DNA of 64,000 nt, from positions 37,014,001 through 37,078,000 of the forward strand of contig OZ076412.1 in the NCBI GenBank assembly GCA_964187785.1, given 5' to 3'. Below, piece by piece: positions 1,468 through 36,380 of this stretch. Position 1 is the first letter of the stretch. Every line of letters begins with the position of its first letter. The notes beneath the pieces are model-generated. The model ran no database searches, was not told where the DNA came from, and saw nothing but the letters and a program-made list of their open reading frames with translations. The DNA comes from Amphiscolops sp. MND2022 (Eukaryota). The position numbers and the translations under genes are program-made.

Positions 1468-4137
1468 TGGTGGCAGGACCTACCGAGAACATGAGACAAA
1501 GTTCTAACAAAAATCAAAAAAATTTTATCCCCGAAAACGGTGGTACCTACGAACAAAATTGAACGACACCTAGAACAAGAAGTGGAGCTCAATGAACGCC
1601 CAACGAAAACACAATTGACTGTTGTAAAACAACAATCTAGCTCTCAAAAAGCCAAAAGACTGTCACAAAATACAAAAACGAAAAATAAAACTCCAAACAC
1701 AGTCCCCAAATAGAATCTTCAAACCAATGTCGATTTTGCAACGACAAAAGCCACATAGCAAAAGAGTGTCCAAAACTTGCAAAACGACAGAAAATGGACA
1801 AAGTGCACCAAAATTTTCTCATTGTAACAACCCTGGTCACAAAGAACTTTACTTTGGAGCAAACTTGGAAAATCGTCCACCGAAATGGACACTCACAGAA
1901 ACTCAGCAAAAACTCACTGAAGAGTATAAAAAACCAGTAAACCCACGAAACTCAAACTTTTGACATCGAAGATATAAACTAAAAAAGCCACGCCTTCAAT
2001 CAAAATCGCCATCAAAACGAAATCAGTAGATGGCTGGCAGCACCCACTGAGTGTAAATCCCATAAAAACTATACTGGAAAACGACTCAACGACTGCGAAA
2101 TCACAGTTTCCAACACCTGACACCCATTGTGAGGACCTGTATGAAAATTATGAATTTTACAAGGACGCCCCAGATAAGTATATTTTACGACAAACTTTCG
2201 AACCTGAAAGAGAACAAGAAACACAAAACCAACACCCTACAACTTCACAACATCAAGAAACAGAAACTGAACGCCTGAATCATTAATTTATATCAACAAC
2301 CTCAACTGACGATGAACGCATGTCAGACTTCTTGTGTCGAACCATGGCCCCATATTGAGTTTGATGGTCCGAAATCCAAAAAACTATTCAGTGGAGTATT
2401 GGATTTATCAACTTCTATCGGAACTACATTCCTCGTTTGTCAGAAAATCTATCGCATTTCATCAAATTATTCAAAAATTGTCACAATTCCGGATACCAAA
2501 CACGGTTTTGGATAGTTTCTTGAAGTATACCAACAAATGGAAAAATCACCCACTGAATGAACCGATAAAGAACAAACAGCACATCTTGATGACTGATGCC
2601 AGTTTTACAGCAGCTGGATATGCTATCATGACCGAGCGCAATCCTAACCAATGATTTCAGCCCAGAAGAAAAACCTATGCCCCGATTGCTTTTGAGTCCA
2701 CAATATTCAATCCAACACAACTCACAATGTCCATATACGCCAAAGAATTCTTTATTGATCATTTTGCATTTTCTGAAATTGGACAACTAAAGAGGGAAAT
2801 ACTTTTCCTGTTATCGTTTTTACAAATACCCGATCGTACACAGGCTTCTTTCAAATCAAAACGACTCCACCACTCCTCTGGAACGCCTGTACTCCGGTAT
2901 AATTTCGTCATAGCACTGCTAAAAACTTCCGATGAGGAGCAAAAGTTAACCAAACCGAAAAACTTGAACAAACGAAACGACGTTACAACAAAAGCAATCG
3001 AAATCAGTAAACAGTCCATTGGAGTTGCTAAGGATGAACTCATCTACATGGTTCCTGAAGAATAACAACTGTCGGAAGCAAGAGTAACATTACGTAAAAC
3101 ACCAAAAACGAAAACTCACAGTGACCCAGAAATGTAGTTTCAGTTCTAGAGAACTTCCATTATCCCATGGCAGGTACAATCAACTATAGATAAGGACACT
3201 TCAAAGACAACGCAAAAATCCGCTCAGAACAGAATTTTGATGAACTTCTACTCAATCGTCGAGCCAAAATCGAAGGCGAATCTTACAATGCAACCGAATT
3301 CACACAGAACTACTGATACAAACACTATCTGCAAATAATAACCCGGAGTGAAATCGAACAAGATGTTCTAACAAGAAAAGACTACGATGATATGGGTATG
3401 ATCTCACATTACCAAATTCTTTTACCCAAACGAACAACTCCTAGATGAAATCCAATATACCCTCCATGGGCATAACGCGAACCATCCATGAATCACCAAG
3501 ATGGTCCAAGAAGCAAGACAGAAAAACTTCCACCCATGCATTGCAAAAGAACATTCGAACATAACATGGGAACAAGATGTAAAATGTGATATCAAAACAA
3601 ACGGATCGATAGCGACCTACGGAACTATTCAACTGTCCCGAATGTGACCTCGGTCCAGACGATTTCTTGCATATGGATATTTTTCCGGATCATTCCCCAA
3701 GTGGAGGATATGACAACATCATCTTTGTTCGTAAACTTGGCACAAACAAAACGCAACTTCTTCACCGTATTAGATTGCAAAAATTCCCCCCCTGCTAGCT
3801 CCTCTTGCTAGGTCCATAGATGACCTATATGCCGGCACTTGGGACACCAACTCTGGATCTAGTCCAACTGATTCGGAACTGAAGACATGTGATCAACAAG
3901 AGGGCACAGTTTCACGCAAACCTACTGCTCAATCCGAAAGATACCATAACTTTAAAAAACAGTGGTCGGATCCCAGCAGGACAACCTCAAAATGTCGAAA
4001 AAATGAAAAACATGACCCGATACCAGAAACCTGATGCACAAGAATTTGAAGATATTGTAATTACAAGAAGTGAAAAGTAAATGTAAAACTTAGGTCCAAA
4101 CCCTAACCCTAACTAGTCAGATGCATATGGATATTAA
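1468..4137 (+). pseudogene. Degraded Ty3/Gypsy gag-pol (internally deleted, many stops and frameshifts)
   Basis: PBS-like 1468-1478; zinc-knuckle relic (HCNNPGHK..YFGANLENRP, compare CYSGANWANRP in the young gag); RNase H relic ILMTDASFTAAGYAIMTE and MSIYAKEF; integrase-region fragments 3200-3800, all paralleling the intact pol at 8892-14978. Confidence 0.8.
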
Positions 4138-5788
4138 AAACACAAATCAAGGGACTCAAGATTGAAAGATCTTAAGTTTCTGATATTTTGACAGAAAATA
4201 CCAAAACACCAAATCATACTTAATCAGCCTGATGGGAGTACAGGACATGATAACAGAAATGAACGCGACATGAACAGATAAATACATACAAAAAACTACA
4301 AAATCAAGGCAAAAAGTCAACCTGAAATTGGATGAATTTCATTTTGTCCAAAATATTCCTTCTTTATGAAACGATTTTTGGAAGAGTCAGGTTTAAAAAG
4401 AAATAAGAGATGTGTTTCTGAGACAACCAGGGATACTGTAAGGACCGGAGCTCCGAGAACAGGGATTTGGTCTTAGACTTCCCTGAATGACTGAGACCGG
4501 ATTGGATCGGTGTTACAGCAACAAACTTCGAAGACGATCAAGCAGCACTCAATTCAGGCTGTTTGGGGCTAGTTTGACTTGTAGCCATTTGCCTCTCTTA
4601 CTCTGTCATTGAACAAGTGTTGCGGGAAACCAGGCGGTTCAAAAGAAATTGGTGTCGGGAAGAACACGAAGATGTTACACCCCAGACTGAAAACGAGCTG
4701 TCGTCGAAAAGAGTCCTTCCTTTCACCAACAAGGAGAAGACAGCAGCAACTTTACGTGGGTTAGGCAAATAACCCATGAACGTTTGGAACCACGATCAAA
4801 GAGGACTGCACACTACTGACACAGAAGTCAAACTCGCGAATATCAGAGGACAATTTAGGTAAATTAACAGTATTTTTTTCAAAAAGAAAAACAAAAACTT
4901 TTCTAAATTTTCAACAAAAAAACTGAACCTAATTCAATGGATACCAGATGTTTCACAATACTATAGAGCCATTGTTCTTGGACCAGAAAAACACAAAGTT
5001 GCTCTGATTCATAACAATCTGTCTGCTCTCTGTGGCGAATCACACGTTCGTCTAAAATTGACATCCCTTGAAGCACTTTGGATTTTCAGAGGCTATGTTT
5101 CAACAAGAAGAAACAAAAGGTACTTCAAAAACGAGTGTTAGTTCCACAAAGTGACCAGAGGTGGGTGTCCTACTTTCGCCAACTTGACCAGCAAACTCAC
5201 TATTCTTTAGAAACTCGGAGGGAGTTTTGAGAGGGAGATCACGCAGAGAGATCAATTGTCAAAAACCTATACCAGGCCGGAATGTCTCCAACGAATGAGT
5301 ACGGCAAGATGGTCCGAAATTGGGTACACGCGAAAGTGGCGACAGCGATGTAGATGCGGAAGCGTTCGGTCGAAAATCTTTTGAAAGCGGAACGATCTGA
5401 CAAAATTTAACTGACACCCGACAAGAAGCATGGAAAAGGAATGCAGAAAGAAACCATTAATGTACAAGGACATTTCTGATCAGGAATAATTTTGCTGGAT
5501 TAGTTTTGTCCTTGTAAATATTTTGTCAAGGCTTCTGTGCTAAAAACATACGATTGAAAGAGAAAGAAACAGAAATAATAAGAAGAATTAAACAGGGATT
5601 TATTTCTTTCAAGTGCTATTTAAACGCCTTGAGACCATCAGCGAGCGGCAAATGAGAGGCAACTCTAGCCCAATTCTGAGAGAGCTGTTCAAGGTTCACA
5701 ATGGAATCTTCATGGCAGTGTTCAAGGTCAATGATGGCCTGAAACAAAACAAATACTCAAAAAAACAGCATTTCAGCATCTCATTATA

Positions 5789-7995
5789 TGTCACAGCCCC
5801 ACTTGAGCTGTGAGTATTGCAGCAGAATCAACCCAGTCTTCGAAGAATAAATTAGGAAATGGAAAAGGAGAAATGAAAACAGAAAACCAGAAAACAATCA
5901 GTTCAATCCATACAACCTGAAATAATGGCGCTAAATAATATAATAATTAGAAGAAATTATATATTAATATTTATGTAGTTATATATACTTACATACAGTG
6001 TACTAACCGGTATAAAGCTACTTGTGCAGTTAATAGTATTAATACGGTGCTATATAATTAATAGTAATACAATCACACCGCTCAGTAAGCGGCCTGAATG
6101 AATAATGGCGGAACTGCGGCCTGGCAGCCGGCCTGAGATATGCGCAGTGAAGCGGTGGCCTGGCGAGTGGCCTGAGAATGAAAGTGCTACGAATCAATCT
6201 CTAACACTAATTATGCTATTTTGTGAATACATGTAAACCTGTTGATGCGTTAAACGAGTATTAGAACAACGTTATACATGTAATTGTCCATATAAACAAG
6301 TATTGGAGCTAACTTTGAAATACCGATATACTGCGGCCCAGGACATGGCCTGAAATGTAAATCTATAAAATCCATTGTAGAAATGGAAATTGTTAATGTT
6401 AATAGTGATCGTTTCTGCTCCTAATGAGCCTACCAATCAATGCCTGCAATCTCAAAAGATGCCTGAAGATAAAGAATGAAGTATGATGCTATTTTTACAG
6501 ATAAACCATGTTCAAGTGCTAAATGAAGTAGACCGCGGCCTGAGACACGGCCTGAAATCTATTCTGACCAAATCCATCCTGGAATTGGAAATATCGATCC
6601 CCCTAACCATTTCTCCGCTCTCGCGAGGGAGCAGTGACGTAACACATACAACAGTAAGCGATATTGATTGATTGCATGCAATGTATGATGATTTTAACCA
6701 TGTAAATGCAGTATTTAATTTGAGAACGCCAAGCTGCGGCCCAGACCTTGGCCTGGGATTAAATGTTCGATTTAATTTGTTTAATCTCCATAAATGATTT
6801 GTGTTGCCTTGTTTAGAGTTAATTTCCACTCAACTAGATTGGGAAGAGACTCGAACCGTATTTTCGAGTTGATTCTAATCACTGAATTGTTTGTTGTTGA
6901 TATAATTAATCATTATTTTTCGGGAAATGATTTTATTTTGCCTCAACCGTTCCAGACCTCAGCCTGGGACCGAGCTTTCCCATTTATACTCGAATTTGTG
7001 ATTTTTAAGCTCTCATGAGTGAACTTTATGAGCTAATTTGTATTTCTTATTAAATAATCATCTCGCCGTGCAATATTTGAACCAAATTAATTCGGGAAAT
7101 TCTCATTTTCCCAATTTCCAATTTGTTGCTTTGTTCGATCATTTCGCTCTTTGGGCGTGCGCAGTGACTAATTTTTTTTCACACTTTGTTCAGTTTCGGC
7201 GTCTTGAAAAGGCGGGAGTTGGAGGTGAAGGGAAGCGGAGTCGCAACTCAGACAGGAAGTGGACGCGTGCTTTCCTCGGAAAGCATGAACAAACTGAGAG
7301 TCTGAGTTCGACAAAGCGGAACTGAACTTCCTGTTTCTCCGCCTTGGAGGGACGCCGGGCTGAATGAAGTGTGAAGGTGGTGCGGATTTTTCCCCGCTTC
7401 ACGTGGGTGAAAAGTATATATACTTTGGAAAATTGAATAATTTCAGTGAATAATAGTCTTGATAATTTCAACAAGTTGATAATTTGACAATTTCGTTAGA
7501 ATCTTGAAATTCAATAATCGCTCGTTGTAAAACAACTTTGCTTTTCACTTTGAAAATACAATTGAAGATTAAAAAACCTCAATCTTTTCCCTCATCTTCT
7601 CGTTGGATAATCTCGAGCTTATAAATCTTAAACCTGGAAAATGCCTGAAAGATCCTCTAAAAGAAAGGCCAGGAGAGATTCAGTGACTAGTTCACTAGGC
7701 GAGCCAGAAGCAACCAGTTTAAGAACTGAAAACGTTCCCAGTATTTCCGACCGAGACTTCTCTGAGCTATCTGAGAAAATTGAAAAGTCAGTGACCAGAA
7801 GGATAAAAGATGCTGAAGTTGGACAGAGGGAGATTTTGAAGATGATCGAGAATTTATCCTCAAAAATAGATTCACTGTCCGGTCAACCGCCCAATTGTGA
7901 AAACCTCGCCTTAGATCCCGACGAGATCGAAAATCAAGCCTCAACATCAAGGCCATCCATACTGAACGAGTTGCACCCATCACAGGGTCAACACA
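5789..7995 (+). repeat. 5' LTR (2207 bp)
   Basis: Starts TGTCACAG, ends CAACACA, followed by TGG of the PBS; direct repeat of 19918-22122 with about 5 substitutions and two 1-bp indels seen by eye. Confidence 0.97.
7250..7450 (+). promoter_or_regulatory. Putative LTR core promoter
   Basis: ETS-like CAGGAAGT sites (about 7253 and, inverted, about 7324), E-box CACGTG (about 7400), perfect 16-bp palindrome AAAGTATATATACTTT (7411-7426) containing a TATA box, Inr-like TCAGT at 7443-7447 about 30 bp downstream; ATTAAA at 7568-7573 as a possible poly(A) signal in R. Confidence 0.5.
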
Positions 7996-9210
7996 TGGTG
8001 ACAGGAGTGTTCCCCCAAACAGAAGTGCCGCCCCGATCATCAAGCCTACCGCCCCCCAACCAGAAATACCCGGACCACATAGTGGAAAAGCTACTAGAAT
8101 CGCTAAAGAACGTAACCCAACAAAATATCGGGCTCCCTAGACTGCCAAAAGCGATGTCAACAACAATGCCTACTTTCAAAGGTAAAAATGACAAGTTTGA
8201 ACACTTCGAAGACCTTTTTATGACTAGCCTCAAAGTGTATCCCAACATATCCGAAGAAGAGAAAATACACTATTTTCATTCCTTACTCAGGGATGACGCC
8301 CTGCAGACATACCGCAATATGACCGACACAAACCGTGCCAGCCTGGAGGACATCATAGCAACCTTCAGACGACGATATGTCCGCCCCCAATCTATCGCAA
8401 CAGCCCGCTGCAAATGGAATCAGCTCTATTTTGACCCATCCCAACAAACTTTTCAAGATTTCTTGGAGCAGTATCAAAAACTGGCCCAAGAAGCATACGG
8501 AGATGACGCCCCCAAGTTCATTGAGACCTCCTTCTACGCCAAAATGCCGACCCACCTAAAACGAGTGCTAAACCAGGCAAGGTTAGAAACTGAATCGTAC
8601 GAAATGATGGTCGAGCACCTAGAAAGAGAGATGGAGCTAAACGGACTGTTGGCACCAAACGAGAGCAACATAACAGGAGTGCACCAAATTGACGTGCAAG
8701 ACCCACAACAAGCTCCGAACCCCCCCCCCCCCCAAACCGTCAGGACCATGCTACGGATGTGGGCAATCCGGCCATGTTGTCAAAAATTGCAGAAAAGTAG
8801 CCCGCGAAGCTCGCAATCGGGGTAACAGAGTGCCCAACAAAATAGTTAACCCATGCGAAACCTGTGGCAAGAAAAGCCACACAACTGAAGAATGCTACTC
8901 AGGCGCCAACTGGGCAAATCGACCACAATGGTGGAAAACCCCCAAGGCCACGTCCTCAAACAGCATACCGCTACCGCCACAGTCACAAGGTCAGTATGCC
9001 AAAACCAATTTACCAGTGACCCAACCGCCATATCAAAATCAAACAACCAGCCAAATGGGCTACCTACCTCCTCTTTCAATGACAACCCAACCCCAAACCC
9101 AAACTCAGTACCACAACCAGACAACTGGCCACATGGGATTCATACCTCCCGCGCAAGTGACTACCCAACCTCAAACTCAACCTCAAAACCAAACCCAGTC
9201 AAAAAACTAG
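7641..9210 (+). CDS. gag: Gag (capsid-like domain plus two CCHC zinc knuckles), interrupted by a 1-nt frameshift in a C14 run at 8720-8733
   Basis: ORF 7641-8825 has the MPTFKGKNDKFEHFEDLF...YFHSLLRDDALQ capsid-like region; ORF 8689-9210 continues with CYGCGQSGHVVKNC and CETCGKKSHTTEEC (CX2CX4HX4C). Confidence 0.9.
7996..8009 (+). promoter_or_regulatory. Primer binding site, tRNA-Leu-like
   Basis: TGGTGACAGGAGTG abuts the LTR end; 13/14 match to the complement of the metazoan tRNA-Leu(CAG) 3' end as I recall it (TGGTGTCAGGAGTG). Confidence 0.8.
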
Positions 9211-12200
9211 CTTTGCCACATCTTCAGTTTGGGGAGATTGTCGAAACCCGACATTTCACAACATCAGAACCCCCAAATACCTACGACCACGAAGAAAATG
9301 ACGAGCGACATGAAGAACCATCTCTCGACTGGCAGCGAAGATGGCAGATTCACAAGCTCAACAAACAAAATAGACAAAACATGACTAAAAAGGACTACCC
9401 CCAATGGTACCTTGACAATCCAACCGACTACAGTACCCCAAAACGACCACTACCCGAAAGTACTGCCCCTGAAACCTACATACATGACCCTGACTACAAC
9501 TGTGACCCCTACCACAATCCCAAAATCTACGACCAAACGACTCTAACCTTTAAACAACGAGAGTGTACGCCATTTGAGGAATTTATCAAGAAAACTGGGA
9601 TGAATATCTCGACAGAAGCACGTCACAGACCGAAGACCGTTCAACCAGTCCCAGAGTACGACCAGGACGCGGAAAAAGTGTCAGAAATAATAGTCGACGA
9701 GCTGACTAACAAACCCAAGTCCATACTCAAAGATCACGGATCACAAACAACGGCTCCACAATCGCCACCAAAAAACCAACCAGTTAACCCAATCAGAGCC
9801 GGAAGAATACGATCCCCAACAATGGACGTGGCACCCGACTGCCACCAACATGAAAATCTCACCGGCAGGACCACGACTGAAGCCGTGGACCTGACACAAA
9901 CCACAACAAACACGGAGATAACAATCTCCACACCGCAAACAAGGAGAATAAAAAGGTCTCTACTCCTAGAGCCTCTCTCCTACAACGAGGCGTCGTCCTC
10001 ACTCTCCTCCCCAAGAAGTCAGTCCGCAAATGAAGTCGAGGACCCTCGACCCATTACGACTGACGAAACGAACATGCAGTCTGAATCCCTACCCGGTGAT
10101 GCAAACAGCACACCACCCCAGGACGTACCTAGGTCCTACCCCAACGAACAGGCTGCAGAATACCCGAATCAAGATTATTCAGGCAGAGGGACACGAGCCC
10201 CCCTCTCTTCTAACACCAGGCAGTCCGAAAATGAGACCGAGAACCCTCGTCCCATTACGATTGCCGCAACCAACATGCAATCTGCATCCCCCTCAAGTGC
10301 TGTAAACGACACACCAACCCAGGACGAACCCCAGTCCTACCCCCTGGCGCAGATTGCAGAATACCTCACAAGAGACCCAATCACCAAAGAGGAATGCATC
10401 CCAATCTTCTCAGCGGTGACTCTTAAGAAAAAGAAGAAGATGCTATTCGCCCCAATGGACTTCCAGGACCTGACCCTGGACGCCCTCATTGACTCTGGAG
10501 CGCTGGTCAACTGCATCTCCGAAACCGATTACAACAAAATCCTTCAGATGTCCCCCAAGGACATAGTCAAAGAAATGGAACCGCCCCCGTTCAAACTCCA
10601 AGTCGCAAACGGCGACATTGAAGCCCCCACCAAAACAATAATCCTCCAATTTGAAATAGGGGACTGGAACTTCAAAGAGACGTTCATTGTTGCAAAACGA
10701 CTGACAGGCCCAATACTTGGCCTCACATTCCTGAAAAACAACAGCGCCATTCTGGATGTAAGCCAAGGCCTACTCCACTTCCCCCATCTAACGTACTCAA
10801 TTGAAACCGACGAGTACACCCGCAACCGAAAGATGTACAAAGTACAAGTAAAGAATCCAATCACCATTCCTCCTGAAACAACCCAGACAATCACCGCCTA
10901 CACAGACATAACGTCTACCATCAGCACAACCGGTGTCATCAACCCAGCTACCAACCATTGTAGCGGTGACCCCTTAGTAGTAGCCAGCTCAATATCTACA
11001 GCCTCCAACAGGAAAATTGAGGTAAGGGTGACCAACACTACCCCCACACCCTACACAATAAAAAAGAACACGACGGTTGCTGAATTCAAAATTATGTCGC
11101 CCGAAGAAGCCAAAGAGCTCAAACCGCTCAACACCGCAGCACTAAAAGTGCTCACGGAGGATGACTCAGAAGATGCGATACTATACATCAACGAACTCCT
11201 GAAAACTTCGGACCAACCTTCCCAGAGTCAAAACTTTTGGTTCCCCACACCAGACAATCCTGGCGACCCTAGTACCCACACGCCGATTCAAAGCAGAATA
11301 CTGAGGGAAATCAAGGAACTGGAAGAGATCCAGAAACTGGACCCCAATAACAATGCTGAAGACCGAGAGGCATTCCTCAAAAACTTAAAATGGGATGATT
11401 CCCAATTAACAGAAAATGACCAAAAAGACATTGAGGAAATCTTGATAGAGTTCAATGACATTTTCGCGAGGCACAGACTAGACATCGGAATCAACCACGA
11501 CATTAAAATCAAGCTCACGCCAAAAACAGACGACCCAGTCTACTCGCAAAGCCTGCCTTGCCCCATTAACTTGAAAGAGGACTTGACAGTGGAACTGGAA
11601 TTAATGCATTACTTCGGGATTATAACAACCCTCCCGTTCAGCAAGTATGCCAGCCCGATTTTCTCTCAACGAAAGCCGAACGGCCGCCTACGGCTCCTAG
11701 TAGATCTCAGAAAGATCAACAACCTGATTTCCGATGATTACATCAATAACAATCATCCGGTCAGCACCCTAACGGACGCGGCACAACACCTCGCTGGCAA
11801 GAAGTTGTTTTGTAAGCTTGATTGCTCACAAGCTTACCACGTACTGCAGATGGCAGACCAGAAGTCAGTCCAACTCCTAGCTTTCAACTTCGCCAGCAGG
11901 ACGTTCGCGTACCTCAGGCTGGCCCAGGGACTGAGCCGCTCACTGTCATCCTTCTCAAGCTTCATGAGGGAGTATCTGGACAAAGCCATAAAGGCGGATA
12001 AATGCGCCCAATACGTGGACGACATTGGAATCGCCACAAACACTCCTGAAGAGTTGAAAAACAATTTGAGAGAGGTCTTCCAATGCATCCGCGCCGCAGG
12101 ACTCCGGCTCACAATGGCGAAATGTCAGTTCGGCGCCAAGGAAGTCGAATTCCTTGGGCGGACGATCTCCCCATCAGGTGTAGCACCCCAGAGCCACAAG

Positions 12201-14978
12201 ATACAGAAATACCTGCAAACACTCAAGTTCCCCCGAACGAAGAAAGGACTTCAACGATATATCGGATTTGTGAACTATTACAGAAATTACATTCCTCGAT
12301 TATCCGAGAAGATTGCCCCTTTCCACGAACTCATCAAATCTGACAAGCCTGCCAAAATCGACCAAGAGCTCATAGCAAACTTTGAGGCCATCAACAAGTC
12401 CTTAGACAACGCGTGCGGGCTCTGGCTCAAACAGCCGCTGCCAAACCGGCAGTATGTCATGATGACTGACGCCAATTTCAAGAACGCAGGATACGCCTTA
12501 ATGACCGAAGAGGACCCAGAACAGAAACTCACCTCCGCCAAGAAAACCTATGCTCCTTTGGCATTTGGATCTAAAACTTTCTCTCCGTCACAATTGAAAA
12601 TGTCAATTTATGCCAAGGAGTTTTTAGCCATCTATTTCGCCTTCATGGAGTATAGTCACATCTTGTGGGGTTCCTCCAAGCCAACCATCGTCCTAACAGA
12701 CAATAAATCAGTCACAAGGTTTTTTCAAACCAAAATGATTCCACCCTCCCTGTGGAACGCTTGTGATTTCGTGCTCCAATTCCATTTCAAAATCGCCCAT
12801 GTGCCAGGAAGGATGAACACGGCGGCAGACTTCCTCTCCCGATTGGACATCAGTCCCAAAGAAAAAGTCCTTCTCCAAATCAGAGAAGATATCCAGACAA
12901 CACCCATCCAAGTGAACATCCAATCCTCAGATATACATGAGGAGGACCAATTTTACTTCTTGCCAGAAGACGATTCCGAAACTGAAGAAGACATCTGGGA
13001 ACGCAAACAGCGTGCCCGAAAGAAAATCTATAACCCCCAAGAACAACCAACCGATACTCAAACTGATACGACTGAACCAAAACCTCAAACGGAGAATCTA
13101 CCCCTGGTTTGCAACAGCATCCAAGACCCGGAACAGAAACAAAGGCGCCAGCTATACAACGAAAACAGTTTTCCACGCAGCCTCAGACCACACCAGGACC
13201 AGGACCCTGTCCTCAGAAATCTCAAGCTCAAAATATTGAAGGAACCGTACGACACCCAACTCCTCAATGACGACCCCAGAGCAACGAAGTACCTAGCCCA
13301 AGAAGATAGGATCATCATCAAAGACGGACTCTTGTATAGACAATATTTTGGGGATACTGGGAAAGTCAAATATTTACAAGTGCTGCTCCCCCAACAACTG
13401 GTCAACGAATTCATACACCACCATCATGGCAAATATGGAAGACACCCGGGCATAGCCAAAACCATTCAACAATGCCGCGAGAAATACTACTACCCAGGAC
13501 TTGCCGCCCGGATAGCCAACCATATCTCACAGTGTATGGAATGCGCCCAAACAAAGCGGACACCCAATAGTACCATCACACCACCACTAATCGACATGTC
13601 AAAAATAGCAATGGGACCCGAAGACGCACTCCAGATGGACATAGTCCCCTTCGATGACCCATCAGGAGGTTACACCGCAGTCATTACAGCAATGGATGTC
13701 TTCTCCAGGTACCTATTCGCCTACAGTGTCGCTAGAATCGATACCAGAACGGTCACCAGAGTCCTAATGGACATCATCACCAGACATTGCTATTTACCCA
13801 CGACAATCATAACGGACAAGGGATCCCAATTCATATCAGAAGCGATGCAACAAACCACCGCTGCACTGGGAATCCAACTGAAACACGCCACCACGAAACA
13901 CGCCCAGACGATCGGCATCCTGGAGAGGACCCACGCCTCCCTGAAGGAAAGCCTCAAAATAATGACAGGGGAACGGCGCACGATGTGGCATCAATTTCTA
14001 CCGATGGCGGTATTGAATTACAATACCTCATACCACACATCACTAGGATGCGAACCCAGCAGAGTGTTTCACGGAAGAGTGCCCTACAATGTACTCGACC
14101 TGAAATATGGACTCAAGCCACAGCCCCCTACCCCAATCAACCACGAGATAGCTGAGGGAGTGTTACAACAAACACAACAGATCCTCAACCAAAGCCAGCA
14201 AGCTCTGATGCAGGCCTATGTCCGTCATAAACGCTATTATGACAGAAAGGCATCAGCAAACCCACTGGTAGTAAACGACTACTGCTATGCATTGCATCCA
14301 AAGGCGCATAGCCAAGCGACAAAACTGCCGTTTCGGGAATACCTTTGGACGGGACCATATATCGTGGTCAAAACCCTACCCAATAATAACTATTTAATCC
14401 GGAAACTCCAAACGAACCTCACCCAAATCCTGCACAGAATCAGACTACGACCATTCGCAAGCAGCCACAAACTGCCTGACATCTCAGTTGCGCCTAAAGA
14501 TTTCCAGCAGGACACCGAAGTGCCTATACAGCACGATGACCTTTTCGCAATGGCTTGGCAGGAACTTCATCAAGAACACCCTACCCACCCCGCAAATAGT
14601 CAGCCACCTGAACCAGAAGTAATACCCCAAGCACAGGAACCAGATAATGACCCAACATACCCCAGCCCTTCGAACCCCGACCCAGAGCATGGACCTGGAA
14701 GCAGTAATAACCACCCAGGAACCCAGACAGATGACCCAGACCTAGACACTGAAGATGAACCCGAAGATTGCCCACCCGTTCCTAAATCCCCCCGAAAATC
14801 TCATTACAATCTCCGACGAAACCCAGCTTCAAATTGGAAACCAGATTTCGCATACTATAATGCAGTAGAAATAAACTCCGAAAATCCCGCAATTCAAAAC
14901 GAAGGCCTGGGCGACGGCCCAGAAATACAGATCCTAGCAGACCTCGGCCCAGACGGGGGCCCAAGATCAGGAAATTAA
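8892..14978 (+). CDS. pol: Pol polyprotein (protease, RT, RNase H, integrase); probably translated from the frameshift at about 9201
   Basis: Uninterrupted 2028-codon ORF: LIDSGA aspartic protease; YVDD RT; MTDANF/KEFLA/TDNKS/AADFLSR RNase H; HHCC zinc motif; LQMD..ITDKGSQF..ILERTH DDE integrase; WTGPY motif. Confidence 0.97.
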   Translation: MLLRRQLGKSTTMVENPQGHVLKQHTATATVTRSVCQNQFTSDPTAISKSNNQPNGLPTSSFNDNPTPNPNSVPQPDNWPHGIHTSRASDYPTSNSTSKPNPVKKLALPHLQFGEIVETRHFTTSEPPNTYDHEENDERHEEPSLDWQRRWQIHKLNKQNRQNMTKKDYPQWYLDNPTDYSTPKRPLPESTAPETYIHDPDYNCDPYHNPKIYDQTTLTFKQRECTPFEEFIKKTGMNISTEARHRPKTVQPVPEYDQDAEKVSEIIVDELTNKPKSILKDHGSQTTAPQSPPKNQPVNPIRAGRIRSPTMDVAPDCHQHENLTGRTTTEAVDLTQTTTNTEITISTPQTRRIKRSLLLEPLSYNEASSSLSSPRSQSANEVEDPRPITTDETNMQSESLPGDANSTPPQDVPRSYPNEQAAEYPNQDYSGRGTRAPLSSNTRQSENETENPRPITIAATNMQSASPSSAVNDTPTQDEPQSYPLAQIAEYLTRDPITKEECIPIFSAVTLKKKKKMLFAPMDFQDLTLDALIDSGALVNCISETDYNKILQMSPKDIVKEMEPPPFKLQVANGDIEAPTKTIILQFEIGDWNFKETFIVAKRLTGPILGLTFLKNNSAILDVSQGLLHFPHLTYSIETDEYTRNRKMYKVQVKNPITIPPETTQTITAYTDITSTISTTGVINPATNHCSGDPLVVASSISTASNRKIEVRVTNTTPTPYTIKKNTTVAEFKIMSPEEAKELKPLNTAALKVLTEDDSEDAILYINELLKTSDQPSQSQNFWFPTPDNPGDPSTHTPIQSRILREIKELEEIQKLDPNNNAEDREAFLKNLKWDDSQLTENDQKDIEEILIEFNDIFARHRLDIGINHDIKIKLTPKTDDPVYSQSLPCPINLKEDLTVELELMHYFGIITTLPFSKYASPIFSQRKPNGRLRLLVDLRKINNLISDDYINNNHPVSTLTDAAQHLAGKKLFCKLDCSQAYHVLQMADQKSVQLLAFNFASRTFAYLRLAQGLSRSLSSFSSFMREYLDKAIKADKCAQYVDDIGIATNTPEELKNNLREVFQCIRAAGLRLTMAKCQFGAKEVEFLGRTISPSGVAPQSHKIQKYLQTLKFPRTKKGLQRYIGFVNYYRNYIPRLSEKIAPFHELIKSDKPAKIDQELIANFEAINKSLDNACGLWLKQPLPNRQYVMMTDANFKNAGYALMTEEDPEQKLTSAKKTYAPLAFGSKTFSPSQLKMSIYAKEFLAIYFAFMEYSHILWGSSKPTIVLTDNKSVTRFFQTKMIPPSLWNACDFVLQFHFKIAHVPGRMNTAADFLSRLDISPKEKVLLQIREDIQTTPIQVNIQSSDIHEEDQFYFLPEDDSETEEDIWERKQRARKKIYNPQEQPTDTQTDTTEPKPQTENLPLVCNSIQDPEQKQRRQLYNENSFPRSLRPHQDQDPVLRNLKLKILKEPYDTQLLNDDPRATKYLAQEDRIIIKDGLLYRQYFGDTGKVKYLQVLLPQQLVNEFIHHHHGKYGRHPGIAKTIQQCREKYYYPGLAARIANHISQCMECAQTKRTPNSTITPPLIDMSKIAMGPEDALQMDIVPFDDPSGGYTAVITAMDVFSRYLFAYSVARIDTRTVTRVLMDIITRHCYLPTTIITDKGSQFISEAMQQTTAALGIQLKHATTKHAQTIGILERTHASLKESLKIMTGERRTMWHQFLPMAVLNYNTSYHTSLGCEPSRVFHGRVPYNVLDLKYGLKPQPPTPINHEIAEGVLQQTQQILNQSQQALMQAYVRHKRYYDRKASANPLVVNDYCYALHPKAHSQATKLPFREYLWTGPYIVVKTLPNNNYLIRKLQTNLTQILHRIRLRPFASSHKLPDISVAPKDFQQDTEVPIQHDDLFAMAWQELHQEHPTHPANSQPPEPEVIPQAQEPDNDPTYPSPSNPDPEHGPGSSNNHPGTQTDDPDLDTEDEPEDCPPVPKSPRKSHYNLRRNPASNWKPDFAYYNAVEINSENPAIQNEGLGDGPEIQILADLGPDGGPRSGN
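9201..9207 (+). promoter_or_regulatory. -1 ribosomal frameshift slippery heptamer A_AAA_AAC
   Basis: Correctly phased in the gag frame (TCA AAA AAC TAG) immediately before the gag stop; the pol frame is -1 relative to it. Confidence 0.8.
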
Positions 14979-15316: not shown

Positions 15317-18300
15317 TCAACAAGATTTCTCTTGACGGGACCCTTTTTTTGACCCTGTTTTCCTCTTCCGCGCCGACGAACTTGTAGAGGCCTGTAATGC
15401 ATCGGATACTCCAGCTACAGAAACAGCTTCAGCAGCAGACGTGGTCCCAGATTGCAAACCACGCGATGATCGCCCATCAGCCATACGGGACCTCCACCCC
15501 TCGACTTGACCAGTGTAATAAGCTGTGTAACAGCGAAACAAACTTTCAAAAATTTCTCTCCAGTCATGACGACTAATATCGGTGAACGGATCAAAGGAAG
15601 TGCGCGACAGGAACTGATGCCCCACAGGCAAATTAGTCTTTAACTCTCCCAAACACTCCACGGTCAGCAATTCATTTGAGACGAACTTGGGATGGAGAAC
15701 AAATGACTGCACCGCACTGATCCCTGAACGAATTACAGACGCAGGAAGACCAACTCCGCTACTTGAAATCTCAACAGGAGGCATAGCACTTGGCCCAGGA
15801 CACACAATAACTCGCAATAGGCGCACCACTTGCTTGACATGACCCCGACATTGATAAATGTCACTAGCTTCCAAGAACTCGAACACGTCACAAACCTGGG
15901 CAGGATCAGAGGACCGGCGACGCAGATCCACAACCAGAGATTTGAATTCATTTACAGATGCCTCTCGATCAACGCCACTCAGGAAGCTAGCATCCTGTAA
16001 ACAACTCACCAGATCCTGAAACAATTCCACCACGTACTCAGCATCTCCACACAGCAGCATATCCACACTCAAGCAGCTGAGAGAACGGGCCACACGGGAA
16101 CTCGAATATGCTGAAGACCCAAGGTGTTTCAACAACTCCAACAAAGAACCCTGGCACTCACGCAGGAAAGTGCGGCGAGGAGCATCATCAAAACCCCGCA
16201 ACGCCGTCACGATGCTGGGCTCAGACTGCAGACATTCCCCAGCGGTAACATTCGCCCAATTGGTCAGAGGCTGATCAATATACTCGAACCAATTATCCAC
16301 GGACGGCAGCTGACTAACCTTTTTTACCTTGCCCAAAAGACTCCAGTAAAAAAAGCAAAAGTCAGTAAAATTGCGGCACGCGTAATCCCGAATCTTTGGA
16401 TCCAGCTGCCGTCTGAAATTTGACCTGTAGCAAAGTAACACAACGTGTAAGAAGGCGAATAGCGGCAAGACCAAACGGTCAGCACACAGAAGAGAATCCA
16501 TATCCACAATAGTCGTCGACTTCTTCATTAACAACACATTGTTGGATAAACACAGCTTCACGTCAGCCCAGTTATCCAGAAGTTCCTGCAGAACCTCACA
16601 CAAGGACTCAAAAGGCACGACTCCAGATTCCAGACACAAACGTAACTGGGGCAGATTCAACAACCACGCCTGATGGCGCACCCGCTTGAGACGCTGAACC
16701 AAGTACTCCAGAGCCGAGAACGGATCCACAGACCCCACACACACAATACTAGACTCATTGATGAGACGACGCAACAAATCTGGATTAAAACTCACAGCAA
16801 CAACAGGGACTGGTCGGCCCACTGCCCGAAACCAATCGATATAACCGTTAAACAGAACAGGAGGACAGTCCATAATCGCCGCAGGTCCTTGACTGGTTGA
16901 CACAAGGGACAGTACACGCGCTAAACAACGCATCTCAGCCTCACAGGATGTCTCACTATGCTCTTCATCACAAAGGTGCACTTCTCGCAGACAGTCATCG
17001 GGGCAGCATCGGACGATACACCTCACACCGGAGTATGAAGACTGCAGCGCCAAGCTAAACGGGCCGTCCCCAAGCCATGACTTTACGCGACGAAGCACAC
17101 GCGGATAAAGAGTCTGCACCAAGACCACTAAGGTCTCAGTCTTACTCCAAGTGACTGAAGCGTATGGACTCTCAACTGGCAAGGTAGTCCGGAACTGATT
17201 CCACAGCCGACGCAGGAATAGCTGGGACCCACCACTTTTCAGCAGCTCCAATAAGCATCCCACAAGAGTGGTCGGGGGCACATTAGATGGGACGCCAACA
17301 AGTGCATCTACTTCATCTTCGACGAACTTGTTCATACGACCCAATACCACAGGAGGAGTTTCCTCAATCTCGGCACGTTGTTCAGCGGTCAGGTCAGCAA
17401 CTCGGATGGGATCGAACTTCTCAGTATAAATCACATCCTCATGGTCGTAACGGTACCGACGATCTTTGAGGTAATGACCCTTACACTTGAAGTGCCTCCA
17501 GATTCCTCGTGGACCCCGGGATAGAAAGGAAACATCTTTCTTGCAGATCGAGCAATTGAACCCATTTGGACCCTTATCATTCCGCCGGCTGACAAACAAT
17601 CGGGGAATCGCATGGTCACTCATGGCTTTCGTCAACACGTGACGCTCCGTCCGCTTCCTTGATCGATCTTCATCCCGAGCCAACAGTTTAGCCTTCTTCA
17701 CCTCTAAAGGATCCAGAACACGACCAGGATTGTTGACATCGATGCCCTTCCCTTTCAAAAGACGAGACAACTCTTCAAATTCTAAACACAACACCAAGGG
17801 GCTAAACAAGTAACTACATACCACAACTCTTCATGCAGACAATCAAAAGATAGTGGCAAACAAAACCATCCCAAAAAAAAATCGCAACAGTCAGGAAAGC
17901 CAAGCAATAGAATAATAACAACACCCTTACGTTTTGACAGGCTCTTCGTCTCTTTTAAAACTTCCGTCCGTTCAGCTCGGGCAGCACTTCGGGCCAGCAT
18001 CACACACTGCGCCGCGGACATCACCATTGGCGAACCAGGAGGAACTGTATCCAGGCCAGCTGATAACAAATGAGCAAATTTAACAACACCGCGAAATGAG
18101 GCTAAACTACCACACAAAGAAATCACACAACACGGAGATGACACAAACAGTTCAATGAACATGAAAATTTCAACGTACCTTTTTCCCAGTCATTGTAAAC
18201 AACTGAGGCCTCCACCCCAACAGCGGCTCGTGCATGTTGAGTCCTGCCACGCTTGGACGACTCTCCGGGGAGTTCAGAGACAGCATCACTGACAGGGGCA

Positions 18301-19157
18301 GGAGTATCAATCGCCGCCTCGCACACAAACACGTCACTGTCTTCAGAAGACCCAACCCCCGGTCCAGGTTCTGCTCCAGTAACTGTAATACAAAATGAAG
18401 TATGACTAACAAGAAAATGCAGAACAAGTGTCCCTAAAAGCAACAAATGAACCCATTTCATCTACACAACACCCGAAGAAAGAGAGCGAATACCTACTTT
18501 CAAGAGTCCGAGAAGCAGAAATCATGGGGGGCATGTAGTCATCTCCTGAACTGTCATGAGCAGATGGCAACTTGGAAATGGAACCAGAGATGACGTCAGC
18601 CAACCGAACTCGCTTTGCCGACTGCACACTAGTGGTCGACAACTCCCGACTAGCCCTTGGTTTCTTCTCCCGCCGGGACTTTGTACTATGGGTCGGGACA
18701 TAATCCTCATCAGACCCATCATCGCTAGCTACAGAAAGTAGATGAATAGAACGCGTTCGACGAAACCTAGGAAGGGCTGGCCACCCATTAATTTCTAGAA
18801 AAGATTACCTTTCTTCCGTGCCAAGTAGTCAATGTCATGGCGTTCATCACTGGTTGCCGAATGGAAAGACCCAGTTGCAACATTGCTCGCATGTTCTTCA
18901 ACGCCGTCATCATCAGAAACTGCTTTTTCACCAAAGCCTGGCACATGCAGTTCTCCGTGACCAACAGAGACACCAGCTTCCTCCTGATTGCCTCCACCAC
19001 TCGCCTCTCCACTCTCATCATCACTGCCACCTCCACTAACTCTCTCCCCAACACGCACCACTGATCCCACGACAGACTCTACTTCTGCCTCACTCTCCTT
19101 CAGACCGACTTCCTGACTTCGACACAGCACAGCATTATCCTCCTCGGTGGAGCTCAT
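15317..19157 (-). CDS. Five-exon antisense accessory gene of the retrotransposon; predicted 1125-aa zinc-finger protein derived from a hAT transposase
   Basis: Exons 19157-18809, 18728-18498, 18382-18179, 18059-17931, 17781-15317 (3378 nt); all four introns GT-AG and phase 1, joined frame open. Zinc finger CSICKKDVSFLSRGPRGIWRHFKCKGH and hAT-like blocks GDGPFSLALQS, ELLDNWADVKLCL, VARSLSCLS. Confidence 0.8.
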
Positions 19158-19379
19158 GTTTCAAACTTGTCTAAAAATAACAAACCATGAAAAATTCAAA
19201 GAAGATGTGGCGTAAAACAATGGAATTATTAATACTAGAAGTTATCTACTATATAAGGAGAGTTGTTCAGTCTGCCAGCTGAACAATTCATGGAGTTGAC
19301 ACAAACCGTGTGAACAAATTTTCCAAGCGAAGCAAATCAGTTGTACTGAAAACTGATTGACACTCAGCTTGCTATTATA

Positions 19380-19979
19380 ATGAATCATCCCATTTCAAAT
19401 AACCAAGCAGACGAAGACGTTTTTATTCTTGAACGAGATCAACAGCCAACACCGACTGAACAAAGGCCCAGTACTCCACCGCCTAATTATCGTTTCATCA
19501 ACCCAACGCAGCCTGCTATTGTTTATGAAATAGTCAAGACGGAAGACATACACGTAGTCCTTGTTCACGAACAACCAATTGCGAACGCAATTAACGTTGA
19601 AAATGAACAAGGAGTAATACGAAGGTTCACCACAGATAATCCGGTTATCCCAGATGACGAATTCATGAGCCCCATCAGACGATTCAATCAAGAGGACCAA
19701 AATAGCCCTGATTATTTTGTCGACAGCCCTATGAGCTCAATAAGCGAGACCGACAGCAGCTCAGAAGGCTACTGGTCAGGCAGCAGTTGGGAAAGCAGCT
19801 CTTCATGGCGATCATACGATTCAATGAGAGATGACCTCACCACTTTGTTTGATACACCGATACGATCCATTTCCCAATTTCTCCTTCCTGAGGGAACTGG
19901 GCAACGAAGCCGAGGACTGTCACAGCCCCACTTGAGCTGTGAGTATTGCAGCAGAATCAACCCAGTCTTCGAAGAATAA
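19380..19979 (+). CDS. ORF3, 199-aa sense ORF of unknown function crossing the PPT into the 3' LTR
   Basis: ATG-initiated open frame, acidic/Ser-rich, ends HLSCEYCSRINPVFEE; a relic with a similar CxxC..INP end crosses the LTR start of the older element at 27501. Confidence 0.55.
   Translation: MNHPISNNQADEDVFILERDQQPTPTEQRPSTPPPNYRFINPTQPAIVYEIVKTEDIHVVLVHEQPIANAINVENEQGVIRRFTTDNPVIPDDEFMSPIRRFNQEDQNSPDYFVDSPMSSISETDSSSEGYWSGSSWESSSSWRSYDSMRDDLTTLFDTPIRSISQFLLPEGTGQRSRGLSQPHLSCEYCSRINPVFEE
19890..19917 (+). promoter_or_regulatory. Putative polypurine tract (imperfect)
   Basis: GAGGGAACTGGGCAACGAAGCCGAGGAC, 21 of 28 purines, immediately before the TG of the 3' LTR. Confidence 0.45.
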
Positions 19980-22122
19980 ATTAGGAAATGGAAAAGGAGA
20001 AATGAAAACAGAAAACCAGAAAACAATCAGTTCAATCCATACAACCTGAAATAATGGCGCTAAATAATATAATAATTAGAAGAAATTTTATATTAATATT
20101 TATGTAGTTATATATACTTACATACAGTGTACTAACCGGTATAAAGCTACTTGTGCAGTTAATAGTATTAATACGGTGCTATATAATTAATAGTAATACA
20201 ATCACACCGCTCAGTAAGCGGCCTGAATGAATAATGGCGGAACTGCGGCCTGGCAGCCGGCCTGAGATATGCGCAGTGAAGCGGTGGCCTGGCGAGTGGC
20301 CTGAGAATGAAAGTGCTACGAATCAATCTCTAACACTAATTATGCTATTTTGTGAATACATGTAAACCTGTTGATGCGTTAAACGAGTATTAGAACAACG
20401 TTATACATGTAATTGTCCATATAAACAAGTATTGGAGCTAACTTTGAAATACCGATATACTGCGGCCCAGGACATGGCCTGAAATGTAAATCTATAAAAT
20501 CCATTGTAGAAATGGAAATTGTTAATGTTAATAGTGATCGTTTCTGCTCCTAATGAGCCTACCAATCAATGCCTGCAATCTCAAAAGATGCCTGAAGATA
20601 AAAATGAAGTATGATGCTATTTTTACAGATAAACCATGTTCAAGTGCTAAATGAAGTAGACCGCGGCCTGAGACACGGCCTGAAATCTATTCTGACCAAA
20701 TCCATCCTGGAATTGGAAATATCGATCCCCCTAACCATTTCTCCGCTCTCGCGAGGGAGCAGTGACGTAACACATACAACAGTAAGCGATATTGATTGAT
20801 TGCATGCAATGTATGATGATTTTAACCATGTAAATGCACTATTTAATTTGAGAACGCCAAGCTGCGGCCCAGACCTTGGCCTGGGATTAAATGTTCGATT
20901 TAATTTGTTTAATCTCCATAAATGATTTGTGTTGCCTTGTTTAGAGTTAATTTCCACTCAACTAGATTGGGAAGAGACTCGAACCGTATTTTCGAGTTGA
21001 TTCTAATCACTGAATTGTTTGTTGTTGATATAATTAATCATTATTTTTCGGGAAATGATTTTATTTTGCCTCAATCGTTCCAGACCTCAGCCTGGGACCG
21101 AGCTTTCCCATTTATACTCGAATTTGTGATTTTAAAGCTCTCATGAGTGAACTTTATGAGCTAATTTGTATTTCTTATTAAATAATCATCTCGCCGTGCA
21201 ATATTTGAACCAAATTAATTCGGGAAATTCTCATTTTCCCAATTTCCAATTTGTTGCTTTGTTCGATCATTTCGCTCTTTGGGCGTGCGCAGTGACTAAT
21301 TTTTTTTCACACTTTGTTCAGTTTCGGCGTCTTGAAAAGGCGGGAGTTGGAGGTGAAGGGAAGCGGAGTCGCAACTCAGACAGGAAGTGGACGCGTGCTC
21401 TCCTCGGAAAGCATGAACAAACTGAGAGTCTGAGTCGACAAAGCGGAACTGAACTTCCTGTTTCTCCGCCTTGGAGGGACGCCGGGCTGAATGAAGTGTG
21501 AAGGTGGTGCGGATTTTTCCCCGCTTCACGTGGGTGAAAAGTATATATACTTTGGAAAATTGAATAATTTCAGTGAATAATAGTCTTGATAATTTCAACA
21601 AGTTGATAATTTGACAATTTCGTTAGAATCTTGAAATTCAATAATCGCTCGTTGTAAAACAACTTTGCTTTTCACTTTGAAAATACAATTGAAGATTAAA
21701 AAACCTCAATCTTTTCCCTCATCTTCTCGTTGGATAATCTCGAGCTTATAAATCTTAAACCTGGAAAATGCCTGAAAGATCCTCTAAAAGAAAGGCCAGG
21801 AGAGATTCAGTGACTAGTTCACTAGGCGAGCCAGAAGCAACCAGTTTAAGAACTGAAAACGTTCCCAGTATTTCCGACCGAGACTTCTCTGAGCTATCTG
21901 AGAAAATTGAAAAGTCAGTGACCAGAAGGATAAAAGATGCTGAAGTTGGACAGAGGGAGATTTTGAAGATGATCGAGAATTTATCCTCAAAAATAGATTC
22001 ACTGTCCGGTCAACCGCCCAATTGTGAAAACCTCGCCTTAGATCCCGACGAGATCGAAAATCAAGCCTCAACATCAAGGCCATCCATACTGAACGAGTTG
22101 CACCCATCACAGGGTCAACACA
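19918..22122 (+). repeat. 3' LTR (2205 bp)
   Basis: Direct repeat of 5789-7995, followed by the TTATA target duplication. Confidence 0.97.
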
Positions 22123-22127
22123 TTATA

Positions 22128-35489: not shown

Positions 35490-35506
35490 TTTTTTTAATA
35501 ACTAAG

Positions 35507-35855
35507 TTTCTCCGGCGTGGTTTCTACTTCGACCACTTCTACTTCCCATTCCACAAACGATCATCAATCTAAGCTCAGGATGACAGCCCTGTTGAATGTC
35601 AACGACCAAATTTGCTCCGTTTGGTTCACGATTGAGTTCCTTGTGAGAATATCATTTTGCCCCAATAAAAAACTGTTTTTAAAAACATGGATCAATATTG
35701 TTGATTTATTAGCAGTTATTCCATTTTACTGCCAAACTGTTTTCTACTTACTTACAATCGACCACTCAGAAACGTTTCTACGCTTCATTGAGATCACCAA
35801 AATCCTACGAATAGTCAGGGTTTTCAAGCTGGTCCGGCATTTCATTGGACTGAAG
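35507..35855 (+). CDS. KCNC: Kv3/Shaw exon: S2, S3, S4
   Basis: Phase-2 TAAG acceptor after a poly-T tract; ICSVWFTIEFLVRISFCPNK, NIVDLLAVIPFY, KILRIVRVFKLVRHFIGLK; ends at AAG|GC donor. Confidence 0.9.
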
Positions 35856-35856
35856 G

Positions 35857-36171
35857 CAGGGTTTTCTAAAACTCGTTTTAATGGTCAAAATTCATTCGGA
35901 TATACATCTTTGGAGTAATGAGAGTCAACATTTAACTGCTGTCATAATGACAACGTCTTCGTTTTGTCGAATAGATTTTGTTCTTTCTAAAAAGAAAACG
36001 TTTGAAATCGAAAACTCGTGAACCTAAACAAACCTAAGGACCTAGCAATTAGACATAATATTTTATTTTCGTTCAGACCTATTTTTTTTCTTGAAAAAAA
36101 CTGACCACAACAACCATTTAGTTAGTGATGGAAATCGCGGCTGCAATGAAAGGAAATAATAGGAAATCCTG
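35857..36171. mobile_element. 315-bp hAT-type MITE forming the GC-AG intron 35856-36178
   Basis: TIRs CAGGGTTTTCTA / TAGGAAATCCTG (10/12); 8-bp flanks ACTGAAGG / CCTGAAGG (7/8). Confidence 0.65.
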
Positions 36172-36178
36172 CCTGAAG

Positions 36179-36380
36179 GTGCTTGTACACACACTGAGAG
36201 CGAGTGCGAAAGAACTGCTGCTGTTGATAGTCTTCCTGGTGATGGGGGTGATAGTGTTCTCTAGCCTCATGTACTATGCAGAGGGCTTCGGTCACGTGAC
36301 CAGTGCAGTCAACTTCAACAATGAGTTCGACACCATCCCAGCCGGATTCTGGTGGGCTCTTGTTACCATGACTACTATAG
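36179..36380 (+). CDS. KCNC: Kv3/Shaw exon: S4-S5 linker, S5, pore helix
   Basis: [35 protein letters not shown]...[16 protein letters not shown]; canonical G|GTCAGT donor. Confidence 0.95.

Follow-up and report, generated by a model that had tools for sequence, protein, structure and literature searches.

An intron-bearing antisense gene with a predicted hAT-type transposase fold carried by a Ty3/Gypsy retrotransposon

Antisense extra open reading frames (ORFs) in retrotransposons with long terminal repeats (LTR) have stood for decades with neither their origin nor their function known. Those of plant Gypsy elements, the aORF-3R genes (Grande gene23, RIRE2, Retand TRP28 and PvRetro13; comparison material also in the accessible parts of PMC6317226 and PMC5418596), and that of the fungal element Boty lie antisense between pol and the 3' LTR. 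According to the accessible text of PMC7264820 and PMC11963269, the plant ORFs are present in most copies of their elements, Grande has its own promoter and a nuclear protein product, and the function is unknown, with a regulatory role proposed; the same text reports no similarity of these ORFs to other transposable elements that would support a nested origin. The word 'intron' occurs 0 times in the Retand paper. Here we describe a gene with the same position and orientation in a Ty3/Gypsy element of Amphiscolops sp. MND2022 (GenBank assembly GCA_964187785.1, contig OZ076412.1, forward-strand positions 37,014,001 to 37,078,000; this whole stretch of 64,000 nt is referred to as the window, and positions are counted from its first nucleotide). 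The gene runs on the minus strand from 19157 to 15317, between pol and the 3' LTR. An antisense accessory ORF in an LTR element is of a known kind; what is new here is the probable origin from a DNA transposase, the host-style introns, the modular exchange between lineages and a candidate target.

Compared with the plant aORF-3R genes, the gene described here and its relatives reside in an animal, have four to six or more predicted spliceosomal introns, encode a protein of 1125 aa (window copy) and have an identifiable, structurally predicted hAT origin. The antisense arrangement directly behind the integrase was found at 33 of 34 loci, and no Pfam match to a TRP28 or PMD domain was found in 91 aligned members at E 0.1. 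The likeness to Hermes and other hAT proteins lies in the order of parts, with a zinc finger (here BED-like by position and spacing) ahead of a predicted RNase H-like core that holds a helical insertion (about 400 residues superposed in the model); unlike those proteins, this one has no sequence-level match, no conserved catalytic aspartates or CxxH, no inverted repeats and about 300 extra acidic N-terminal residues, and the domesticator would be a retrotransposon, not the host. Host-domesticated hAT proteins include ZBED/DREF, DAYSLEEPER and FAM200/GTF2IRD2. HBZ of HTLV-1 is spliced and is a small bZIP protein, whereas the present gene is multi-intron, encodes 1125 aa with a predicted transposase fold and belongs to an element of non-enveloped type. 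What it has in common with HBZ and other retroviral antisense genes is that an LTR retroelement encodes an accessory protein in antisense, one that is nuclear and regulatory (PMC11963269, accessible text), the last two properties being putative here. The mode of action proposed below, an accessory protein acting on short repeats of its own element, resembles that of VANC (VANDAL, MuDR) and TnpA (CACTA), VANC proteins binding repeats of their own elements (PMC5735166, accessible text) and having a MAIN/PMD-like fold (PMC13547354, accessible text). VANC and TnpA belong to DNA transposons, whereas the activity here is putative, with candidate repeats as its only trace.

Animal LTR elements with extra cargo include bdelloid Vesta and Juno (ORF3; GDSL, DEDDy), planarian Burro and Oikopleura Tor (env). 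Their cargo is either common to several element lineages (PMC5408684) or expressed from an internal promoter (PMC4402516), and in the accessible text of PMC5408684, PMC6431247 and PMC4402516 none of it is said to be antisense, to have several introns or to come from a DNA transposase. The env-like ORF3 is sense-oriented and encodes a membrane fusion protein, whereas this gene is antisense and has a predicted transposase fold. The accessible parts of PMC13547354, PMC12477816, PMC11410931 and PMC9911081 contain no closer precedent. No multi-intron antisense or hAT-derived cargo of an LTR element is described in the literature covered, outside which lie Repbase, most subscription papers (including Steinbauerova 2011) and supplements.

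Five exons on the minus strand join into one open frame of 1125 aa, beginning at the ATG at 19157, whose sole stop is terminal: exon 1 (18809-19157, coding part of 349 nt, acidic and Gly/Ser-rich, with 26 D/E in 116 aa), exon 2 (18498-18728, 231 nt), exon 3 (18179-18382, 204 nt), exon 4 (17931-18059, 129 nt) and exon 5 (15317-17781, 821 codons), which encodes the zinc finger, the hAT-like core and a basic tail. The four introns are all in phase 1: intron 1 (18729-18808, 80 nt, donor GTAATC, acceptor TAG), intron 2 (18383-18497, 115 nt, GTAGGT, CAG), intron 3 (18060-18178, 119 nt, GTACGT, CAG) and intron 4 (17782-17930, 149 nt, GTAAGG, TAG). The GC content is 37-43% in the introns and 50-57% in the exons, and every intron meets a stop when translated onward from its donor. 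A sequence-only reading of this DNA had proposed exactly this model, and all of its coordinates, splice sites and phases were reproduced. The same reading had pointed to a further acceptor at 19171, which is present and whose AG is found in 29 of the 30 aligned rows (L013 lacks it); 79 nt upstream, a weak candidate donor at 19249 occurs in 10/10 rows among those listed. The acceptor is a candidate for the end of an intron in the 5' untranslated region (UTR) or for a trans-splice acceptor, so that 19171-19249 (-) may be a 5' UTR intron or an outron. Splicing of the four introns is inferred from their conservation.

A DNA search of the genome returned 41 matches (39 of 535 candidates scored) and a protein search 55 (55 of 12,007 scored), the copies falling into groups of about 98-100, 87-89, 80 and 70-72% identity; four remote homologues used as queries gave at least 95, 97, 142 and 51 matches, partly overlapping. 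An alignment of 29 further copies keeps 230 of the 232 splice dinucleotides (GT/AG), the losses being in L010 and L014. Among intact lineage representatives, exon lengths change in multiples of 3 only (+6 in exon 1 of the L024 group), while intron lengths are not so limited (+5, -4, +7 and +6). The ratio of nonsynonymous to synonymous divergence (dN/dS) between lineages is 0.06-0.24 (0.133 against L016; 0.082 at dS 1.66 against L024, with 0.149 in exons 1-4 and 0.062 in exon 5). It is below 1 for each exon taken singly (bootstrap 95% upper bounds 0.08-0.57), and exon 5 read in its other two frames on the minus strand yields values of 1.6 and 2.7, with many stops. Both checks on sister copies that the sequence-only reading had put forward, conservation of splice sites and dN/dS below 1, thus came out in its favour. 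It had also named frame-breaking decay as evidence against the gene: this occurs in many single copies (stops or frameshifts in 18 of 29, and dN/dS of 0.43-0.51 among near-identical copies), but divergence between lineages is strongly purifying, and for this reason the broken copies represent ordinary post-insertion decay, with selection working on replicating lineages. These comparisons strongly support a genuine spliced antisense gene, maintained by purifying selection in an old Ty3/Gypsy clade.

The genomic context was analysed at 34 loci (30 close and four distant), chosen from the top matches and not at random. The integrase end lies directly downstream on the opposite strand in 29/30 close and 4/4 distant loci; the sole exception, L016, has LTRs and gag, and pol is absent. 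At the four distant loci the cargo is 22-46% and pol 44-59% identical to the window, in the same antisense arrangement. No element-free copy of the gene was found in this non-random sample, and its protein is predicted to fold like a hAT DNA transposase; on this point the sequence-only reading needs correcting, the gene not being a host-like capture of undefined kind. In L016 (positions 1-9849), an LTR, gag, the antisense gene in intact form and the second ORF make up a pol-less unit of 8.0 kb; after it come another LTR and gag start, with 99.3% identity over 1833 bp, so that the form is either tandem or non-autonomous. In L023 most of pol is missing.

The intron history can be followed in the distant subfamilies. 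In L033 (46% identity), four GT-AG introns, all in phase 1, sit where those of the window do, the frame is open over 1174 aa, and the exons differ from those of the window by +33, -36, -15 and -3 nt. L031, L032 and L034 have two extra introns within the region corresponding to exon 5 of the window, which is one exon in L033 too. In an intron tree of 18 of the 61 candidate rows (after a redundancy filter, midpoint root), intronless rows nest among intron-bearing ones, which suggests that the two extra introns were lost in the window lineage; in this tree the status of the P rows comes from protein only, and P0250 was mis-scored as intron-bearing (its frame continues through the site). That four introns were kept through long replication and even a transfer between lineages is what the argument for survival of antisense introns predicts, but such introns are not permanent, since two further ones are absent here. 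The retention agrees with an antisense orientation in which the introns, lying on the strand opposite to the packaged one, would escape splicing of the genomic RNA and be copied by reverse transcription. One donor-like site was counted on the packaged (sense) strand and 11 on the gene strand; the strict acceptor pattern runs opposite to these donor counts, 4 to 0. The case shows that an element replicated through RNA can keep a complete gene with several introns over long periods.

The protein was modelled with AlphaFold over residues 1-770 of the exon-5 translation, to which all residue numbers below refer, using a 91-row alignment (mean predicted local distance difference test score, pLDDT, 88.1); a single-sequence fold (pLDDT 39.7) was unusable. 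The top 11 Foldseek matches listed were without exception chains of the Hermes hAT transposase, the best of them at E 3.8e-4 with a probability of 1.00. A VIA-align comparison with 48,161 chains gave Hermes at Z 12.9 over 402 residues (root-mean-square deviation 5.8), followed by ISCth4 (6.4) and RAG1 (6.0) amid unrelated helical folds at 6.1 or less; in a repeat, six Hermes entries scored Z 12.9-14.0. The sole match under E 0.001 in the viral structure library BFVD was a hAT-domain protein, and Atlas neighbours included hAT/ZBED clusters at 0.87-0.89, which we take as a lead only. The region superposing on Hermes 133-609 (15677-17182, -) comprises the predicted RNase H-like core and helical insertion. 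Upstream of it, a CCHH zinc finger (17474-17554, -; C76/C79/H96/H102), BED-like by position and spacing, is well modelled and has near-invariant ligands (36-38 of 37-38 rows); the fold searches did not span the finger, and no zf-BED match was found by Pfam in the window protein or the aligned members. Exons 1-4 encode an acidic, Ser/Gly-rich N-terminal third, the C-terminus is basic, and stretches resembling nuclear localisation signals (basic, identified by eye) occur in exon 2 and at the C-terminus.

Several results weigh against the hAT assignment. Pfam gave no family for the window protein, a sequence profile search of the PDB gave nothing under E 0.3, the Foldseek E-values are modest, and hhalign against the two hAT ORFs of the same genome and 120 relatives, a comparison that covered the ZBED-like hAT subgroup only, gave a probability below 1%. 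The link to hAT, as modelled, is remote and structural, and on the model the protein very probably has a hAT-type transposase fold.

The catalytic residues of Hermes are D180/D248/E572 (PMC6027215, accessible text). Hermes motifs were mapped onto the protein by strand order, motif register and alignment ranges, without residue-by-residue superposition, which limits the comparison. Residue 246, in the place of the first aspartate, varies among R/Q/K/E; at 303-304, in the place of the second, R/L/Q or similar precedes a G present in 25 of 26 rows; no C or H of a CxxH is conserved at 326-336; and the equivalent of R318-W319 appears to be a conserved W at 372 whose preceding R is absent. The third acid is ambiguous (about half of the redundant row set is acidic in columns 665-672) and is a further point against complete loss. 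We regard loss of the canonical hAT active site as highly probable. Across five copies from other lineages, identity in residues 60-235 is 94-97%, above every other segment, while in residues 236-330 and 661-770 it is 73-86% in the four more diverged copies and 85-92% in L011; the putative DNA-binding part thus appears to be under the tightest constraint. At the ends of the cassette delimited below there is no hAT terminal inverted repeat or 8-bp duplication (nothing above 9 bp exact), and none of 13 short imperfect inverted-repeat pairs closely frames the gene. The genome has hAT elements of its own (150 PF05699 matches, two intact-looking ORFs). With the predicted fold but lacking the conserved catalytic aspartates and the terminal repeats, the gene is hAT-derived and not a hAT element.

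The element in the window is a recombinant, in which sequence comparison shows the gene and its introns to have been swapped as a cassette between lineages. The approximate limits are 15090 and 19190, from the 3' UTR to the 5' acceptor of the antisense gene, introns included. Against L024, L025, L026 and L029 the window is 92-100% identical in pol, the second ORF described below and the LTR, and 62-81% within these limits; against L011 the pattern is reversed (90-96% within, mostly 55-90% outside). Synonymous distances agree: 0.07 in pol and 1.83 in the gene for L024, 1.09 in pol and 0.17 in the gene for L011. The introns moved with the cassette (88-96% identical to L011, 52-85% to L024), and three trees are concordant with the transfer. 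The nonsynonymous distance (dN) in the RNase H-integrase part is 0.06 between the window and L011. In 37 loci the second ORF shows 93% or more identity to the window's own; with coordinates matched by eye, 34 of these loci could be assigned to three cargo alleles, 10 of window type, 20 at 80-81% and 4 at 71%. Template switching between co-packaged RNAs is a described mechanism (PMC13317346, accessible text), and the introns travelling with the cassette are as expected if it joins unspliced genomic RNAs; the intron-bearing gene would move between co-packaged elements in this way. Further mosaics were seen in L014 and L021, which are 85-90% identical to the window around 19500-20100 only, and in L019, whose pol is closer to the window (86-94%) than that of the other copies of its group. 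For studying how introns are lost and genes exchanged within retroelements, the clade offers a natural series.

Head to head with the antisense gene lies a second accessory ORF (19380-19979, +; 199 aa, acidic, Ser-rich), which extends into the 3' LTR. It has 150 genome matches at 65-100% identity, most of them stop-free, dN/dS in diverged pairs is 0.07-0.24, and it gave no Pfam family and no usable Atlas match. The divergent start codons are separated by a 222-bp spacer with a conserved block containing a TATA-like box (19250-19256, +; 9/10 rows among those listed). An acidic ORF also occupies this place in distant subfamilies (L031 617-3, -; L032 6630-7301, +; L034 6539-7000, +), each with a hydrophobic-then-acidic stretch, which we take to resemble a SUMO-interaction motif.

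The 3' LTR contains five same-strand pairs of GGCC(T/C)(G/A), 12 bp apart, within 20247-20883 (+). They start at 20247, 20286, 20464, 20665 and 20866 and are thus spaced by 39, 178, 201 and 201 bp. One to five such pairs were found in 16/16 other LTR ends tested and none in the remainder of the window outside the LTRs (0.004 per shuffle). When the last three repeat units are compared, their motif blocks agree at 57-80% and the remaining sequence at 27-37%. The pairs are candidate protein-binding sites.

The origin and function that we propose combine these observations. An ancestral hAT transposase gene would have inserted into the element in antisense orientation and been retained there after losing both its termini and its catalytic chemistry. 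It would be transcribed from an internal or LTR-borne antisense promoter and spliced host-style; the protein would be imported into the nucleus, oligomerise like hAT proteins and, through its zinc finger, bind the paired short repeats of the element's own LTR. Binding would hold the promoter open or active, making the protein a transactivator or an anti-silencing factor. Hermes BED fingers bind, as multimers, short subterminal repeats (PMC10368747, accessible text), and VANC offers the parallel given above. By this analogy, we think it possible, at a little under even confidence, that a retrotransposon took a DNA transposase into its service as an accessory factor in the nucleus, probably one binding its own LTR; one transposon class would have been domesticated by another, rather than by the host. 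A fuller version is more tentative: a dead hAT protein encoded by a multi-intron antisense gene may bind nucleosome-spaced LTR pairs and form, with the second ORF, a module swapped between backbones, which could help to explain the very large expansion of the clade. Against LTR binding, the repeat pattern was fitted after being seen, the LTRs have a common descent, and the pairs could equally well be bound by a factor of the host. Cassette swaps across LTRs that are mostly 55-75% identical also argue against tight lineage-specific pairing, unless the motif common to the LTRs is the target. With a hAT origin, a visible loss of chemistry, a conserved putative DNA-binding module and candidate sites present in one element, the function is directly testable.

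Other functions fit the data less well. A role in integration, in which the dead hAT scaffold would bind cDNA ends, repeats or chromatin and escort or tether the pre-integration complex (nuclear import, end protection or target choice), is unlikely but the strongest of these. Holding transposon ends is what the hAT fold evolved for, the first kilobase of the LTR contains the repeat pairs and puts them near a cDNA end, the basic stretches could serve import, and a nuclear-import or regulatory role was proposed for the plant antisense ORFs (PMC7264820, accessible text). However, the long acidic N-terminus and the site spacing of about 200 bp suit chromatin or transcription better, and the cassette moves across backbones with differing integrases, as the RNase H-integrase distance to L011 illustrates. 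Rather less probable is a protein decoy that, without binding the LTR, poisons a host hAT-derived repressor or silencing factor through mixed oligomers, or blocks competing hAT transposons. The hAT elements of the genome itself would provide partners, and the repeated allele replacement on one backbone resembles an arms race; yet the protein resembles neither of the two hAT transposases of the host, nor their profile, in sequence, which makes mixed oligomers doubtful, and selection is overall purifying, not diversifying.

The protein might instead serve the host, or harm hosts or cells without it, the element prospering as its carrier. We consider this improbable: the very high copy number across many subfamilies and the intact gene kept by the pol-less L016 unit would fit, but the decay of inserted single copies fits selection on replicating elements, and every copy at the sampled loci lies in an element. 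Still more improbable is residual catalysis by a nuclease or recombinase with a rearranged active site, acting for instance in LTR-end processing or element excision. The entire fold is under strong constraint, with conserved tryptophans (372 and 404) and acids (215, 282, 465, 473, 611 and 618); however, neither of the strand ends that carry the hAT aspartates has a conserved acid, CxxH is absent, and residues 236-330, which form the first half of the core, rank with the least conserved of the folded parts. That the gene is a nested hAT transposon or a neutral passenger without a role in the element has a negligible probability, common nested insertions and many broken copies notwithstanding, since no terminal repeats frame the cassette and the gene keeps its position and orientation in relatives at 22-46% identity under purifying selection; absent repeats, fixed position and selection already contradict a recently nested hAT transposon.

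Genes such as this one fragment in ORF-based annotation and may be mistaken for host genes. The enclosing Ty3/Gypsy element is very young. Its 5' LTR (5789-7995, +, TG...CA, 2.2 kb) and 3' LTR (19918-22122, +) differ by 5 mismatches and 2 gap positions (99.7% identity) and are flanked by the target-site duplication TTATA (5784-5788 and 22123-22127, +). The 5' LTR contains the gag ATG and repeat pairs as in the 3' LTR, and is immediately followed by a primer-binding site beginning with TGG (7996-8013, +). The gag ORF (7641-8825, +; Pfam DUF1759 2e-7, Retrotrans_gag 5e-4) is followed by the zinc-knuckle (nucleocapsid) portion in a second frame (8674-9210, +) and by pol (8889-14978, +; 2029 codons stop to stop), which encodes protease, reverse transcriptase, RNase H and integrase. 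This pol order, the paired TG...CA LTRs, the 5-bp duplication and gag are those of Ty3/Gypsy elements. The sequence preceding the 3' LTR is purine-rich, with no clean polypurine tract. Of 120 relatives listed for placement of the reverse transcriptase clade, 119 were nameless and one was a 'hypothetical protein'.

Within the 5' LTR (7641-7995) are the gag ATG and some 118 codons, gag running through U5 and the primer site, and the 3' LTR has the same coding start. In the window copy the gag frame is broken at a 14-base C run (8720-8733), a mutation or an assembly error; unlike it, L016 and L023 match gag and the zinc knuckles in a single frame. Two sense-strand AATAAA motifs (15253 and 15274; 0.4 expected) lie in the short gap between pol and the stop of the antisense gene, a possible end point for a shorter gag-pol RNA, and none lies inside the antisense gene (1.9 expected).

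Outside the element, exons of a voltage-gated potassium channel with Shaw/Kv3 as best match (E 7e-23) were found at 35502-35915, 36122-36418 and 55734-56114 (+), from which the host is taken to be an animal. Rfam gave 0 matches and 0 tRNA genes were found in the window. Between the channel exons lie Tc1/mariner transposase fragments (HTH_Tnp_Tc3_2 and DDE_3; 36635-38634, +). A reverse-transcriptase fragment (60873-61778, +; E 2e-38) is probably a decayed long interspersed nuclear element (LINE), and a tandem duplication of a 3.5-kb unit (97.4% identity) spans 44423-51440.

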